Shown here: in pieces, positions 30,989-36,991 of the stretch
How the letters are laid out: each line of letters begins with the position of its first letter
Numbering within the stretch: the stretch's first letter is position 1
From: an uncultured bacterium
GTDB lineage: Bacteria > Verrucomicrobiota > Verrucomicrobiia > Limisphaerales > UBA8199
DNA: 64,000 bases
Reading direction: 5' to 3'
NCBI GenBank assembly: GCA_963749495.1
Contig: CAVVMW010000024.1
Location: forward strand, 64,001 to 128,000
The notes under the pieces: model-generated
What the model was told of the DNA's origin: nothing
The model's database searches: none
The model's input: the letters and a program-made list of their open reading frames with translations, nothing else
Made by a program: the position numbers and the translations under genes

Positions 30989-31933
30989 TCAATGGTGCGC
31001 CGCCTCGGCGCCCTCTTCGTGGGCGCAAATGAGCATCGTGAAGACGGCCGTCAGCAGCATGAAAACCAGCGCCTGGACGAACCCGACCAGTAATTCCATG
31101 AAATAGAACGGGATGGGCAGCAGCCAGCCCAGGCCGGGCACCAGCTTCGACATCGCCTCGAGCATGTTCTCACCGGCAAAGATATTGCCAAAGAGACGGA
31201 AGCTCAGCGAGACCGGGCGGAACAGGATCGAGATGACCTCGAGCCATCCCACCACGAAGAACACAATCACCATGAGGAGCTTGAGCGGGCCCCGGGTCTC
31301 GCCCTTGGGCGCGAACAGGTGCATCAGGAAGCCGATGGGGCCGATCTCCCGCAGCGCCCAGAAGACCCAGCAGGCGAAAAAAACCAGGGCCATGGCAAGG
31401 GTCATGTTCAAATCCGCGTTGGCGCCGCGCAACCAAGGGTCATCCACGACAAAGCCGCGCGGCGTTTGGTGGCCCCAGCCCACGCTGCCCACCCCGGGCA
31501 CCAGGCTCAGCCAGTTGGCCGCCAGGATGAATATGAAGATCGTCGCGAAAAACCAGAATGTCCGCTTCACCAGGTGCCCTCCGATGATCCCCTCTAGAAA
31601 TCCGTAAAGGTCCTCCACCATCCATTCCCAGAAGTTCTGCAAGCCGTCGGGCACGCGCTTCATCCTCCGCGTGGCGGCCTGGGCGAAGAGGATCAGCCCC
31701 GCCGCAACCACCCAGGTCACCACCATCGAGTTGGTGATGGGAAAATCGCCCCAGGGCATGGGGATGCGTGCAATCTCGACCGCGCGCTGGGGCAGGGCGT
31801 GCTCCTCCCGCTCCGCCGTGCCAGCCGCCGCCGCTCCCGCCTGGGACGCCGCAACGGGCGGTTCGGCGCTCCAGCCCAATCGAGGCGCTCCTGCCAGAAG
31901 GACCCACACCATTATGATTCTGAGTAATCGCAT
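30989..31933 (-). CDS. atpB: ATP synthase Fo subunit a with N-terminal extension
   Basis: RPVSLSFRLFGNIFAG, QALVFMLLT. Confidence 0.93.
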   Translation of the reverse strand: MRLLRIIMVWVLLAGAPRLGWSAEPPVAASQAGAAAAGTAEREEHALPQRAVEIARIPMPWGDFPITNSMVVTWVVAAGLILFAQAATRRMKRVPDGLQNFWEWMVEDLYGFLEGIIGGHLVKRTFWFFATIFIFILAANWLSLVPGVGSVGWGHQTPRGFVVDDPWLRGANADLNMTLAMALVFFACWVFWALREIGPIGFLMHLFAPKGETRGPLKLLMVIVFFVVGWLEVISILFRPVSLSFRLFGNIFAGENMLEAMSKLVPGLGWLLPIPFYFMELLVGFVQALVFMLLTAVFTMLICAHEEGAEAAHH

Positions 31934-32224
31934 GTGCGCAAACAAACCGCCAAAGCTGTTCGAGGGGGAGACCCTGGCCTCGATCCACTGCCGACCCGGG
32001 GCCGGAAGCCGGGAAAAACTGCATCATGCCGGCCCGTTGCACAAGTACTTTTTGGAGTGAGGAGGGGCGAGGGGGGAGGGCCGTTGACAAAGTCGTAGCG
32101 CAGGTTTCCAAACCTGCTGTATCGCCGATTTCCAATCGGCAGGGCGTAGGCATATCGAGCGCCCTCGATTTGCGGACGGCCTGCGGGTTTGGAAACCCGC
32201 GATACAGCAGGTTTGGGACAGTTA

Positions 32225-32545
32225 GTGCGAACTGCACATGGTGCAGGTGAACTTTTGGGATGGGCGGTAATCACCCACCCCTTCCATCCCCGGCGCGGAG
32301 AGCGGTTCCGGGTGGTCGAAGCCCGGCGCTACCGCGGTCAGGCCACGCTGATTCTGGAGGGGGGAGAAGGTGGCACCTTTTCCATTTTGGAGGACTGGAC
32401 CGACAAGGCGGTGCCGACGAGCGCGGGGACCGCGCGCCGGCTGTCGGCGCCCGCACTGCTGGAGTTGGTGCAACTGCTGCGGCAGTTGAAGGCGTCCGGC
32501 CCGCCGGCCTCTTCGAACCAGAAAGGAGTTGACAGATGCCCTTGA
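32225..32545 (+). CDS. Small protein of the THPFHP type (DUF5372/Y4bD-like); no in-element ATG, frame open through the left end
   Basis: ITHPFHPRRGERF...WTD; family name recalled, not searched. Confidence 0.65.
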   Translation: MRTAHGAGELLGWAVITHPFHPRRGERFRVVEARRYRGQATLILEGGEGGTFSILEDWTDKAVPTSAGTARRLSAPALLELVQLLRQLKASGPPASSNQKGVDRCP

Positions 32546-32586
32546 CCGATCCATTATCAGAACAGTTATTTAACTGTTCTGATAAT
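32529..32586 (+). promoter_or_regulatory. Candidate sigma70 promoter with an overlapping perfect 16-bp inverted repeat operator
   Basis: TTGACA-17-CATTAT; ATTATCAGAACAGTTA-tt-TAACTGTTCTGATAAT directly before ATG 32588. Confidence 0.6.
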
Positions 32587-32587
32587 C

Positions 32588-32920
32588 ATGCCCGCTTCCA
32601 TCGCCAGCCTGCGCCGCAAACGCCAGGCCTTGATCCAACGCCTGCCTCCTTTGGCCCGGCGCGTGGTTCGCGGCTCGCTCATCGAGCGATACCTGCCCTG
32701 CGGCAAGCCCGGTTGCCACTGCGCCTCCGGCCGCGGTCACGGTCCCAAATACTATTTGTCGGTCAGCTATCCCCACGGCCGTCCCCAACTCCAATACCTC
32801 TCTCAGCAGCAGCACGCCCAGGTCCAAGCCCTGATAAAAAACTTTCAGCACGTGCGCCATCTGTTGGAACAGATATGCGACATCAACCGCCAACTCTTAC
32901 GCCGCCAGGAGAAGGTCTGA
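32588..32920 (+). CDS. Small Cys/His protein (DUF6788-like)
   Basis: RGSL..CGKPGCHC..GHGPKYYLS. Confidence 0.75.
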   Translation: MPASIASLRRKRQALIQRLPPLARRVVRGSLIERYLPCGKPGCHCASGRGHGPKYYLSVSYPHGRPQLQYLSQQQHAQVQALIKNFQHVRHLLEQICDINRQLLRRQEKV

Positions 32921-33047
32921 GCGATGCAGCCGGCGGCCTTGCGGATCGATCCCCGGCCGGTGGCGCAGGTGGTCGCCACCATGCTCCAGGCGTTCCGTCG
33001 GGCTGGCGCACCCTTGCCTCCGCCGCCTTGGGCGGCCAACGCTGCTT

Positions 33048-35144
33048 ATGAACACCGAGTTGGTCCAGGAAACTCATCGCCAAAAACTGGCCTGCATTTA
33101 CCTGCGCCAGTCAACCCTCAACCAAGTGCGCCAGCACCGGGAGAGCACCGAGCGCCAATACGCGCTCCGGGACAAGGCCCTTCAACTGGGCTGGCCGCCG
33201 GAGCGGATACTCACTCTGGACGGCAACCTGGGGATCTCGGGCAGCCAGATGGCCAACCGACCGGATTTCCAACGAGTGGTGTCGCTGGTCTCCTTACAGA
33301 AGGTGGGCGCGGTTCTCGCCCTGGAGGCCTCCCGCCTGTCGCGCTCGGATCTGGACTGGCATCGGCTAGTGGACTTGTGTGGGTGGACGGGCACGTTGCT
33401 CATCGACAAAGACGGCGCTTACAACCCCGGGGATTTCAACGACCGCTTGCTCTTGGGACTCAAGGGTACGATGTCCCAGGCCGAACTGCACTTCTTGCGC
33501 GTCCGCCTCCAGGGCGGCAAGCTCAACAAAGCGCGCAAAGGCCAACTGCGTTTTCCCCTGCCGGTGGGCTTTGTTTATGCCGAGGCCGAGGGCATCGTTT
33601 TAGACCCGGACCAGGAGGTGCAGGGCGCCGTGCGCCTGGTCTTCAGCAGCTTTGGGCAAACCGCCAGCGCTTACGGAGTGGTGCAGCATTTTGCCAAGCA
33701 CCAGTTGCTCTTCCCCAAGCGCAGCTACGGTGGAGTCTGGAACGGGCAGTTGCGGTGGGGCCGCTTGAACCATGGCCGCGTCCTGAGTCTATTGCGCAAC
33801 CCGGCTTACGCCGGGGCCTATGTATTCGGTCGGCGGCGAACCTGCAAAAACTTCTCGCCCACTGGCCAGATGCACAATACCGTCCGCTCTATGCCTTTGG
33901 CCGAGTGGCAAGTGAACCTGCCCAACCAACATCCGGGCTACATCCCCTGGGAGGAATATCTGGCCAACCAGCAGCGGCTGGCGCAGAACCAAACCAACGC
34001 TTGCCCTGGCGCCGCCGGTTCGGCGGCGCGCGAAGGGCAGGCGCTGCTGCAAGGTCTGCTGGTCTGTGGTCAGTGCGGGCACCGGCTCTCCCCGCGTTAC
34101 GTGGGACAGGGCGGTTGCCTGGTTTGGTATGAATGCAACTGGCGGCGGCGAGAACTGGCAGGCAAAGGCTGCTGGTCGGTTCGTGGCAACCTGCTGGATG
34201 AAGCCGTCGCCCGGCGGATCTTGTCGGCGCTGGTGCCGACGCAGGTGGAAATCGCCTTGGCTGCCGTGGCGGAGGTCGAACAGCGCAACCAGGCGTTGGA
34301 GCATCAATGGCAGCTCAGAATCCAGCGAGCCGAGTATGAAGGGCAGTTGGCCCAACGGCGCTTCGAGGAAGTCGATCCGGCCAACCGTCTGGTAGCAGCA
34401 ACGCTCGAACAACGTTGGGAACACGCCTTGCAGCAACTCGAAGGGTTGCGCCAGCAATACCGGCAATATCAGGAAAAGCAAACCCCGCCCTTGTCGGCGG
34501 AGCAACAGGCCCAAGTACGATTGCTGGCCGAGGACCTGCCGCGGCTCTGGCAAGCGGCCACCACGACCGCCAAGCAGCGCAAGTGCATTTTGCGGCTGCT
34601 GCTCAAGGATATTACACTGGAAAAGCGGCCGGCAACGCACCAGGCGATCTTGCATTTGCGCTGGCAAGGAGAGGCCACCGAGGACCTCGTGGTCGAGCTG
34701 CCGCTTAACGCTGCCGACCGCTGGCGCTACACGGAGGCCCTCGTGAGCAAAGTGCGGCAACTCGCCCAGCAACAGACCGACCGCCAGATTGCCCTCACCC
34801 TGAACCAGGAAGGCCTCCGAAGCGCCAAAGGCCGAGCTTTTACCGTCAGTATGGTCGCCTGGATTCGGTGCAAGCACCACATTCCGGCCCCAGTGCTGCA
34901 ACAACCCGGCGAGTTGACGGTGCAGCAACTGAGCCAAAAGTTTGCCGTTAGCCAATACGTGGTTCACTATTGGCTCAAGAACGGACTGGTGACAGCTCGA
35001 AAAGCGCAACCCGACGGCCGGATGTGGATCGCGTTGACGGCCCAACAAGAGCAGGCGTTGCGGGCTTGGGTGGCCAACTCCAAGCGGATCGCCAAATCAA
35101 AAAGCCGGCAAGCCCTAAACGAAATTGCACCAGGTGTAGTATGA
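33048..35144 (+). CDS. Large serine recombinase (resolvase, recombinase, zinc ribbon, coiled coil, extra C-terminal HTH-like region)
   Basis: YLRQS catalytic Ser, SRLSR, LRNPAYAG, CGQCG. Confidence 0.93.
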   Translation: MNTELVQETHRQKLACIYLRQSTLNQVRQHRESTERQYALRDKALQLGWPPERILTLDGNLGISGSQMANRPDFQRVVSLVSLQKVGAVLALEASRLSRSDLDWHRLVDLCGWTGTLLIDKDGAYNPGDFNDRLLLGLKGTMSQAELHFLRVRLQGGKLNKARKGQLRFPLPVGFVYAEAEGIVLDPDQEVQGAVRLVFSSFGQTASAYGVVQHFAKHQLLFPKRSYGGVWNGQLRWGRLNHGRVLSLLRNPAYAGAYVFGRRRTCKNFSPTGQMHNTVRSMPLAEWQVNLPNQHPGYIPWEEYLANQQRLAQNQTNACPGAAGSAAREGQALLQGLLVCGQCGHRLSPRYVGQGGCLVWYECNWRRRELAGKGCWSVRGNLLDEAVARRILSALVPTQVEIALAAVAEVEQRNQALEHQWQLRIQRAEYEGQLAQRRFEEVDPANRLVAATLEQRWEHALQQLEGLRQQYRQYQEKQTPPLSAEQQAQVRLLAEDLPRLWQAATTTAKQRKCILRLLLKDITLEKRPATHQAILHLRWQGEATEDLVVELPLNAADRWRYTEALVSKVRQLAQQQTDRQIALTLNQEGLRSAKGRAFTVSMVAWIRCKHHIPAPVLQQPGELTVQQLSQKFAVSQYVVHYWLKNGLVTARKAQPDGRMWIALTAQQEQALRAWVANSKRIAKSKSRQALNEIAPGVV

Positions 35145-35250
35145 AACCACCGTCGGAAACCTGCGCTACGCTGGCGCCCCTGGCGCACAGGCGCACGGAG
35201 CAACTTTGTCAATGGCCCTGCCCCCGGGTGCGGCGCATCCTGGAACAGAG

Positions 35251-35280
35251 TTGACAAACGCCGATGGAGTGTGCGAGAAT
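35251..35280 (+). promoter_or_regulatory. Candidate cys operon promoter
   Basis: TTGACA, 18-bp spacer and extended -10 TGcGAGAAT upstream of cysI. Confidence 0.5.
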
Positions 35281-35305
35281 CTCATCTATCTTTAGCAATT
35301 AACTT

Positions 35306-36991
35306 ATGATTGCAACCGAATCCTCCGCGAAACTGTCGCGCAACGAGCGGCTTAAAGAGGGCAACCCGCTCCTGGCGGGCACCATCGGGCAGGCCCTGGC
35401 GGATTCCTCGGTGGATCGGTTCACCGAGGACGACTATGAATTCCTCAAATTCCACGGGGTCTATCAGCAGGACGATCGGGATCTGCGTAAGACGGGCAAG
35501 CGATACAGCCTGATGGTGCGGACCAAGTTTCCGGGGGGAGTGCTGAGGGCGTCGCAGTATTTGGCGTGCGACCGCCTATCGAGCGAGTATGGAAACGCCA
35601 CGATGCGGATAACGACGCGCCAGGACTTTCAGTTCCATGGGATCCTCAAAGGCAACCTGCGCCAGACGATCCAGAGCCTCAACCAGACCCTGGTCACAAC
35701 GATAGGAGCGTGCGGCGACGTGGTGCGGAACGTGATGGCCCCTCCCACGCCGGCGACCAGTCCGTTGGTCGAGAAGGTGCTGGAGGAGGCGCGCGGGTTA
35801 TCGGGCCGGCTCGTGCCCAGGACGCCCGCCTACCATGCAATCTGGGTCGAGGGCAAGGAGCTGGATTTGCGCCAGGAATCCAATGCCGCTTTCACCGACC
35901 CGTTTTACGGGAAGACCTACCTGCCGCGGAAGTTCAAGTTCGCCTTTGCGATTCCGCCCCTGAACGACATTGACATTTTCACCAACGACGCCGGGTTCGT
36001 GGTGATCGAGGAAAATGGGCAACTGGCAGGATACAACCTGCTGGCCGGGGGCGGGATGGGGATGTCTCACGGCAATCCCCAGACCTTTCCCCGGGTGGCG
36101 GATGTAATTGGCTTTATCAGGCCGGAACAGGTGGAGGCCGCCGCCAGGGCCGTGGTGGCGATACACCGCGATTTCGGCGATCGAGCCAACCGCAAGCATG
36201 CCCGGCTCAAGTACATCATCGCGGAGCGCGGCGTGGAGTGGTTTCGCTCCGAGATGCAGCGGCAGATGGGTTTCGAGTTTGCCCCGGCGCGTCCGTTCCG
36301 ATTCACCGCCCAGGGCGACAAGCTGGGCTGGCACCTGCAGAGTGACGGCAACTGTTTCCTGGGGCTTTTCGTAGAAAACGGCCGGATTCGGGATGCGGGC
36401 GATTATCGGCTCAAGAGCGGCCTGCGCGAGGCCATCGGGCGGTTCCAACCCGAGGTCCGGCTGACGCCCTCGCAGAACCTCCTGCTAGTTGGGCTGCGCC
36501 CCGACCAGCGCCCCGGCCTCGACAAGCTGCTGGGCGAGCACGGGGTCCGGACCAGCAATCCGTTCAGTCGCACGCGCCTGGCCTCGATGGCCTGCCCGGC
36601 CTTGCCCACCTGCGGCCTGGCGTTGGCGGAATCCGAGCGCGTGCTGCCCGATTTGTTGACTGGAATCGAGCGCCTGCAGGCGGAGTTGGGGCTGCAGGAG
36701 GAGGAACTGATCGTCCGCATGACCGGCTGCCCCAATGGCTGCTCCAGGCCCTATATGGCCGAGATAGCCTTTGTGGGCAAGGCCCCGAACAAGTACCAGA
36801 TTTACCTGGGCGGCAACGAACCCAGCACCCGGCTCAACCGGCTCTACAAAGACTCGGTCAAAGGGGAGGATCTGGTCAACGAGTTGCGGCCCCTCCTGGC
36901 GCGCTTCGTCAAGGAGCGCGCCGCCGGGGAACGCTTCGGCGATTTCTGTGCGCGGGTGATCTTGGGCACCACGGAAGCATCTAAACCTTAG
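35306..36991 (+). CDS. cysI: Assimilatory sulfite reductase hemoprotein
   Basis: LKFHGVYQQ, YLPRKFK, ACPALPTCGL and TGCPNGC motifs. Confidence 0.93.
   Translation: MIATESSAKLSRNERLKEGNPLLAGTIGQALADSSVDRFTEDDYEFLKFHGVYQQDDRDLRKTGKRYSLMVRTKFPGGVLRASQYLACDRLSSEYGNATMRITTRQDFQFHGILKGNLRQTIQSLNQTLVTTIGACGDVVRNVMAPPTPATSPLVEKVLEEARGLSGRLVPRTPAYHAIWVEGKELDLRQESNAAFTDPFYGKTYLPRKFKFAFAIPPLNDIDIFTNDAGFVVIEENGQLAGYNLLAGGGMGMSHGNPQTFPRVADVIGFIRPEQVEAAARAVVAIHRDFGDRANRKHARLKYIIAERGVEWFRSEMQRQMGFEFAPARPFRFTAQGDKLGWHLQSDGNCFLGLFVENGRIRDAGDYRLKSGLREAIGRFQPEVRLTPSQNLLLVGLRPDQRPGLDKLLGEHGVRTSNPFSRTRLASMACPALPTCGLALAESERVLPDLLTGIERLQAELGLQEEELIVRMTGCPNGCSRPYMAEIAFVGKAPNKYQIYLGGNEPSTRLNRLYKDSVKGEDLVNELRPLLARFVKERAAGERFGDFCARVILGTTEASKP

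Follow-up and report, generated by a model that had tools for sequence, protein, structure and literature searches.

We analysed a stretch of 64,000 nucleotides (hereafter the window) from an uncultured bacterium of the Verrucomicrobiota (GTDB lineage Verrucomicrobiia; Limisphaerales; UBA8199; GenBank assembly GCA_963749495.1, contig CAVVMW010000024.1, positions 64,001 to 128,000). Positions 32217–35156 of this window (2940 bp, counting one GG) are an element that resembles an insertion sequence (IS) and is moved by a large serine recombinase (LSR). It carries three genes on the plus strand and no cargo: the body of a DUF5372 gene (32216–32545), a DUF6788 gene (32588–32920, 110 aa) and the LSR gene (33048–35144, 698 aa). 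Like insertion sequences in the broad sense, the element is short, is present in several near-identical copies and holds only genes for its own movement. Here we describe that the Shine-Dalgarno (SD) sequence and the ATG of its DUF5372 gene appear to reside at the opposite end of the element and to be joined to the gene body only across attP, the attachment site of the circular form, an arrangement that is well supported by comparison of sequences.

The ends of the element were set with the help of empty copies of the host repeat in which it resides. In these copies the left flank extends to 32216 and the right flank begins at 35155, with an overlap of 2 nt, GG. Because the empty sites show the abutting flanks, the ends and the crossover dinucleotide are fixed independently of a preliminary description of this locus, which had been made from the letters of the window. 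The dinucleotide GG is found at 32215–32216 in attL and at 35155–35156 in attR. A DNA search of the element's own genome revealed six full copies with 99–100% identity, located on contigs C24 (the window copy), C4, C19, C14 (two copies) and C16, and a script likewise counted the 32-mers of attL and of attR six times each. The search also returned numerous short matches that cover only one or the other flank. In the copy on C16 (L006), the LSR is matched twice with an overlap around residue 675, suggestive of a frameshift, and this copy seems to be decaying. The left end of the element (32217–32247), which corresponds to the right arm of attP, contains the recombinase motif ACTGCAC (32231–32237) at a distance of 14 nt from the crossover, while the right end (35125–35154), corresponding to the left arm of attP, contains GTGTAGT (35134–35140). 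Both ends together form a 39-nt imperfect inverted repeat around GG, with arms that are 72% complementary. Exchange at a 2-nt crossover with imperfect inverted-repeat arms and without target duplication fits a large serine recombinase.

All three gene products match known domains. The DUF5372 product matches PF17342 from ITHPFHP (32270) onwards (48.3 bits versus a cut-off of 25, E 1e-12, profile positions 1–76 of 78), and its stop codon lies at 32543–32545; NCBI annotates such proteins as the Y4bD/Y4pK family, and the NCBIfam profiles returned nothing for it. The DUF6788 product matches PF20586 (91.8 bits versus a cut-off of 27.2, E 3.6e-26). The LSR, whose reading frame is whole in the integrated state, has Resolvase (PF00239, 62.8 bits), Recombinase (PF07508, 55.7 bits) and Zn_ribbon_recom (PF13408, 36 bits) domains above the respective cut-offs. 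The element holds a single sigma-70-like site, TTGACA-17-CATTAT (32529–32557, 10 of 12 matches), which overlaps the last DUF5372 codons and points toward DUF6788 and the LSR gene. Between its −10 hexamer and the ATG of DUF6788 lies a perfect palindrome with 16-nt arms (32553–32586). This palindrome is likely an operator, since the promoter-like site and the palindrome recur across the family and changes in the palindrome arms are compensated between subfamilies. In addition, the LSR is extended by ~200 aa at its C-terminus, and a weak match to a MerR-like helix-turn-helix in this extension (residues 624–654, window 34917–35009, E 0.009, below the cut-off) makes it a candidate for binding the palindromic operator. 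No Rfam family was detected in window 31900–35500, and a search of viral contigs gave one marginal match only.

The right end of the element contains a complete set of start signals. An SD-like motif, AGGTG (35132–35136), is positioned 4 nt 5' of an ATG (35141–35143), which in turn lies 12 nt before the crossover and overlaps the LSR stop codon TGA (35142–35144), forming ATGA. In the integrated state, the frame opened by this ATG extends for 37 codons into the host repeat before a stop at 35254, and the integrated DUF5372 reading frame has no ATG; indeed, it contains no Met codon at all. When the right end and the left end are joined by script, the same ATG opens a frame of 114 codons, which begins with M K P P S, crosses the joint and runs into the THPFHP/DUF5372 frame ending at 32545. 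The ATGA overlap, the SD-like motif, the in-frame joint, the lack of an internal ATG and the stop at 35254 had been pointed out in the preliminary description, and each held up. The same applies to its caveat that GTG 32225 and TTG 32255 are both in the DUF5372 frame and might serve as internal starts; the latter is preceded by a further SD-like motif, AGGTGA (32245–32250). It had also been cautioned that a frame match may arise with a chance of one in three, a concern that the ends, frames and start signals of related elements, described below, have overcome.

Relatives were fetched with a DUF5372 alignment, which provided 15 loci from genomes and 80 of the 145 metagenome loci found. A motif-anchored analysis of 97 loci, in which the left end was set by the 14-nt motif rule, yielded 95 left ends and 55 right ends. 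The gene order DUF5372–DUF6788–LSR is identical in every related locus holding at least two of these genes. Close relatives (LSR 77–89% identical) have the same ends inside different flanks, and their ends are therefore well defined, too. Distant relatives (LSR 43–58% identical), which derive from Variovorax, Noviherbaspirillum, Rubrivivax, Acidobacteriota, Pirellulales, Phycisphaerae and Verrucomicrobiota, all retain an ATG 12 nt before the crossover. Overall, the start codon at this position is ATG in 53 of 55 right ends and GTG in two, one of which is a false hit. The joint is in frame in all 54 loci with both ends, including L033, whose right end turned out to be false as its LSR is cut by a contig edge. 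The same arrangement was recognized by eye in the distant locus L024 and in a cultured Burkholderia plasmid (L106). Among the 95 left ends, just two deviate in length; they are longer by 3 nt and by 9 nt, respectively, in each case a whole number of codons.

These subfamilies differ in other respects. The crossover dinucleotide is GG, AC or TT and is equal at both ends in 49 of the 54 loci (L022 was re-derived by eye); mismatches occur in L013, L094 and L096 (GG versus GT or GC), L088 (GC versus GG) and L033. A left GG facing a right GT or GC, as in L013, L094 and L096, is unexpected for a serine recombinase and possibly reflects a later mutation or insertion at a mismatched site. The position of the LSR stop relative to the right-end ATG varies as well, with values of −4, +1, +10, +12, +31, +113, +262 and +301 to +343 nt; an apparent distance of +416 in three loci is the product of a frameshifted LSR. 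Translational coupling of DUF5372 to the LSR through ATGA, which the preliminary description had proposed together with a comparison of circle junctions among homologs, would apply to the present subfamily, L087 and L022; elsewhere the ATG follows the LSR stop at a distance of 1 to 343 nt and has a strong SD sequence of its own (AAGGAG, GAGGAG, AGGAGGTG). The ATGA coupling is not general. In the subfamily comprising L013 (3368–3708), L094, L096, L103 and L090, the LSR stop and the right-end SD and ATG are separated by 260–340 nt of conserved non-coding DNA. Judged on the aligned ends, conservation of the split start across subfamilies that differ in crossover dinucleotide, target and LSR-stop position is well supported.

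Conservation at the level of single bases points in the same direction. Among 35 distinct left arms of attP, the T and the G of the right-end ATG are the only fully invariant positions (2.00 bits), whereas the mirrored positions of 54 distinct right arms reach ~1.1 bits; the recombinase motif GTGCAGT is shared by both arms. An SD match of 5–9 nt upstream of the ATG is present in 24 of the 35 left arms versus two of the 54 mirrored arms. The 11 left arms without SD match consist of 10 arms with the ATGA overlap, in which coupling by termination-reinitiation can replace the SD sequence, and one false hit. At the other end of the element, 63 distinct stretches reaching from the crossover to the HPFH motif were compared. 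Only one of them has a stop in the DUF5372 frame, whereas each of the two alternative frames is interrupted in 42 of the 63. The single case, L055, has a TGA at codon 5 and a split LSR match, and looks like a decaying copy. An ATG is present in only four of these stretches, and a Met 25 residues before the HPFH motif, as expected of the intact form, was absent from all 148 cluster representatives inspected. Two of the database proteins are unusual. P0157 lies sense to a group II intron reverse transcriptase (RT) gene, so that the RT N-terminus (...RPLGIPT) runs in frame into DUF5372, which could give an RT-DUF5372 fusion protein in the integrated state. In P0213, the first ~30 residues of a serine recombinase (...YIYVRQST...) are joined directly to the DUF5372 domain, and this protein is probably a deletion derivative.

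Several observations weigh against a split start. The loci are mutually related and mostly free of indels in attP, which makes conservation of the frame on its own weak evidence. The five junction codons vary mostly non-synonymously in the close family, meaning that the start is conserved and the peptide is not. The bases of the right end double as recombinase binding sites, which could keep them constant. The rebuilt attP, searched for as 46-mer and as 24-mer, is absent from the 11.4-Mb assembly, and the short contigs of four DNA runs contained no circle joints, two negative results that have no bearing on whether circles exist. Finally, potential internal starts are frequent. TTG at codon 14 (32255 in the window) is present in 46 of the 63 distinct left ends; of 45 TTG-bearing stretches, 25 have AGGTGA or GGAGG 4–6 nt before the TTG, i.e. 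an SD match of at least 5 nt, all of them in the close family, to which the present element belongs. GTG or ATG at codon 4 (32225) is retained in 30 of 61 stretches of standard length. As far as sequence goes, an internal start is thus plausible in this element.

The latter data are the basis of the strongest alternative, according to which DUF5372 is an ordinary gene whose translation begins within the integrated element at a non-ATG codon (TTG 32255 or GTG 32225) on read-through transcripts, the right-end ATG is just attP and LSR-stop sequence, and the frame match is a by-product of attachment sites free of indels. Gene callers, including PGAP, do choose such starts, albeit inconsistently, with the predicted N-terminus 3, 7 or 17 residues ahead of HPFH or else well outside in the flank. 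However, 12 of the 63 left-end stretches have no in-frame ATG, GTG or TTG, the SD match does not exceed 4 nt in any of the 14 distant stretches with TTG, and there is no promoter-like site upstream of DUF5372. Moreover, the right-end SD and ATG are fixed although the LSR stop may be 10–343 nt away, and the mirrored bases of the other arm are less well conserved than the ATG. We consider this alternative unlikely. For the present element, a transcript entering from outside could yield a 96-aa form of DUF5372 from TTG 32255, which we read as leaky or dual expression rather than as refutation of the split start. The claim of the preliminary description that the gene is completed only upon circularisation is well supported with regard to the conserved SD and ATG at the opposite end, and has to be relaxed where the internal AGGTGA and TTG 32255 could start the shorter form.

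A second alternative holds that the right-end SD and ATG serve an outward-reading peptide in the integrated state, or merely recognition by the recombinase, and that the frame at the joint is due to chance. The ATG does open a frame of 37 codons into the host repeat in the window, and the bases in question belong to an inverted-repeat arm of attP. Yet the flanks vary by lineage (a REP-like repeat, the antisense strand of an intron RT gene in 6 of 7 cases, a transposase-like gene in L022) and, therefore, no outward reading frame can be conserved. Chance is also at odds with the near-absence of stops from the DUF5372 frame, in contrast to the two other frames, and with the two left-end indels being whole codons. 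This explanation appears very improbable to us. Least plausible of all, to the point of being hardly tenable, is that circularisation acts via a promoter assembled at the joint (Tn4451, IS911 style) instead of a start codon: although this is a known route by which circles of mobile elements switch genes on, a scan of both strands with the threshold relaxed to 8 of 12 matches detected no −35/−10 pair across the rebuilt joint, and no promoter-like site is present in the 360 nt before the ATG in six loci with long right-end spacers. We regard a start split between the two element ends as the likely organization of the DUF5372 gene.

How could such a gene operate? In our model, the element would cut out as a circle and re-insert at GG within repeated host sequence, with attP lying within the 5' end of the DUF5372 gene. 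Behind the LSR gene, the right end would contribute the start of the gene, with ribosome-binding site, ATG and four and a half codons, and the left end the remainder. In the chromosome, DUF5372 would thus be left without its ATG and without a promoter of its own. As the only promoter-like site is located downstream of DUF5372, only the circle would put the gene behind it. There, DUF5372 would become the last gene of an operon that runs from the promoter at 32529 through DUF6788, the LSR gene and attP. In this element, the circular form would also couple DUF5372 to the LSR stop via ATGA. If the junction ATG is in use and DUF5372 gains both start and promoter only in the circle, the topology of the element would set the DUF5372 level. 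In the present subfamily, the weak internal SD and TTG 32255 may add some expression while the element is integrated.

Structural modelling is compatible with a start region that lies outside the fold. The DUF5372 model (pLDDT 72) comprises a four-stranded SH3/KOW-like barrel (residues 9–61) and a helix (residues 75–90) behind a disordered N-terminus. In this model, which starts at GTG 32225, the pLDDT of residues 1–7 stays under 50, and residue 12 is the first in a strand. Because the modelled N-terminus is disordered, the att-encoded tail looks like a carrier of the start signal and not like a part of the fold. Foldseek retrieved no PDB entry for the DUF5372 model at E 0.001 or better, and VIA-align gave Z scores of 6.1 at most, to NdhS, NusG/Spt5 KOW and SH3 domains; the predicted fold is a generic small barrel and uninformative on function. 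DUF6788 has an invariant C-x4-C-x-C...H pattern and a long C-terminal helix (model pLDDT 83), and its fold comparison (best Z 5.1, to COMM domains) is likewise uninformative. A barrel and helix behind a disordered att-bearing tail may nevertheless act on recombination. Conceivably, DUF5372 promotes the return of the circle into the chromosome or weakens the promoter.

The window copy targets a REP/MITE-like host repeat that is ~217 bp long and bounded by terminal inverted repeats of 23 nt, each of which holds TTGACA. The left part of the host repeat (32071–32216), which is the attL flank, opens with one of these inverted repeats, and the right part (35157–35225), the attR flank, closes with the other. 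The repeat carries the 31-nt target twice in inverted orientation, at ~32094–32124 and across the insertion. The 24-nt core of the empty site, attB, occurs 106 times in the genome and only six of these sites are occupied; exact 38-nt empty sites were counted 25 times by script. Just past the repeat lies a promoter-like site, TTGACA-18-GAGAAT with a TG extension (35251–35280), upstream of a sulfite/nitrite reductase gene (35306–36991). Elsewhere in the family, seven left flanks were tested, and six of them correspond to the antisense strand of a group II intron RT gene that is cut at position 14/15 of Pfam RVT_1; four of these six also contain the maturase domain. L022 is located in a gene with transposase-type helix-turn-helix domains. 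Judging from these flanks, which are intron RT genes, a transposase-like gene and the REP/MITE-like repeat, the family lands on repeated, mostly mobile DNA. Four loci (L051, 1164–3158; L067, 287–2269; L076, 750–2699; L084, 637–2607) have a second LSR, ~40% identical, 420–500 nt upstream of DUF5372 and in the same orientation, pointing to the insertion of a different recombinase element beside the present one, within the same intron RT gene. Cassettes were found in Acidobacteriota, Planctomycetota, Verrucomicrobiota and in Alpha- and Betaproteobacteria. Cultured carriers include Variovorax sp. WS11, which holds four copies, and Paraburkholderia phymatum STM815.

Y4bD/Y4pK–DUF6788–recombinase cassettes with the same three genes in the same order are annotated in plasmids of Burkholderia, Paraburkholderia, Cupriavidus and Sinorhizobium, but only as separate hypothetical genes and with an internal GTG start (the choice of PGAP in Burkholderia). 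In the one case examined, a plasmid of Burkholderia sp. PAMC 26561, a reverse-transcriptase gene again harbours the cassette, whose right end provides SD and ATG. Literature searches with DUF5372, DUF6788 and y4bD/y4pK found no relevant publication in the collection searched (matches to y4bA/y4pH were unrelated) and no account of the cassettes as one element or of the split start; among the entries listed by searches for a serine recombinase in conjunction with circular intermediate, start codon or junction, or with group II intron or insertion site, there was no such element.

Related principles have been encountered in other mobile elements. The Clostridium elements Tn4451 and Tn4453, on which Lyras and Rood worked in 2000, reportedly encode the LSR TnpX and form at the circle joint a promoter for the recombinase gene. 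They resemble the present element in being small, moved by an LSR and able to switch on a gene through a circular intermediate, as would be the case here. They differ in that the joint generates a promoter, whereas here SD and ATG would be joined to the body of an accessory gene and the recombinase keeps its own internal promoter; no pair of hexamers is formed at the joint, which sets the element apart from the junction-promoter class (Tn4451, IS911/IS30 type).

A signal at one end that acts on a gene at the other end after excision is also found in ICEclc (Pcir) and ICEKp1 (P3'end), where the integrase gene at the opposite end is driven only upon excision (PMC13023037). These are large conjugative elements with tyrosine integrases, and the split separates a promoter from a whole gene rather than falling within the coding sequence. 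The 'suicidal' integrases of the SSV type from archaeal viruses and plasmids come closer in this regard: attP lies inside an element gene, which is split by integration and whole only in the circle, a property that a review calls exclusive to archaea (PMC8371274). In those systems, the tyrosine integrase itself is split, whereas here attP cuts DUF5372 at about the fifth codon, leaving an intact serine enzyme in a bacterial element. Thus, circle-specific expression via promoters and genes split by att sites in archaeal integrases are already known; what appears to be new is that, in a bacterial serine-recombinase element, an accessory gene is split such that its start signals are separated from its body.

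A small accessory protein encoded beside the LSR is reminiscent of the directionality factors of serine integrases and, by this analogy, one may guess at a role of DUF5372 in setting the direction of the reaction. In contrast to those factors, no sequence or fold link was found for DUF5372, and a factor made only by the circle would serve integration or shut-off rather than excision, i.e. the reverse of a classical directionality factor. Going one step further, we tentatively envisage, as a conjecture with less than an even chance of being right, that these elements make up a widespread and hitherto undescribed three-gene family of insertion elements with serine recombinases, which senses its own topology. 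Full-level DUF5372 synthesis, possible only from the circle, would flip the reaction from excision to re-integration, e.g. by countering DUF6788 or by shutting the palindromic operator. As regards targets, the same family would be specialised on conserved motifs of other mobile elements as landing sites, namely the 'IPT' motif in RT genes of group II introns, a gene resembling transposase genes and the REP/MITE repeat, which would make it a parasite of parasites. If so, the gene split by attP would constitute a self-contained directionality switch.

The DUF5372 family is common, with 308 cluster representatives found at E 0.001 or better, and databases annotate the gene with inconsistent starts. 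If DUF5372 controls the direction or efficiency of integration, this would be directly relevant to serine integrases as genome-engineering tools, and the strictness with which conserved motifs of other mobile elements are targeted deserves attention in mobile-element ecology. Above all, a translation start that is split across attP would, if true, represent a new and very compact way to report to the recombination machinery whether the element is integrated or free.

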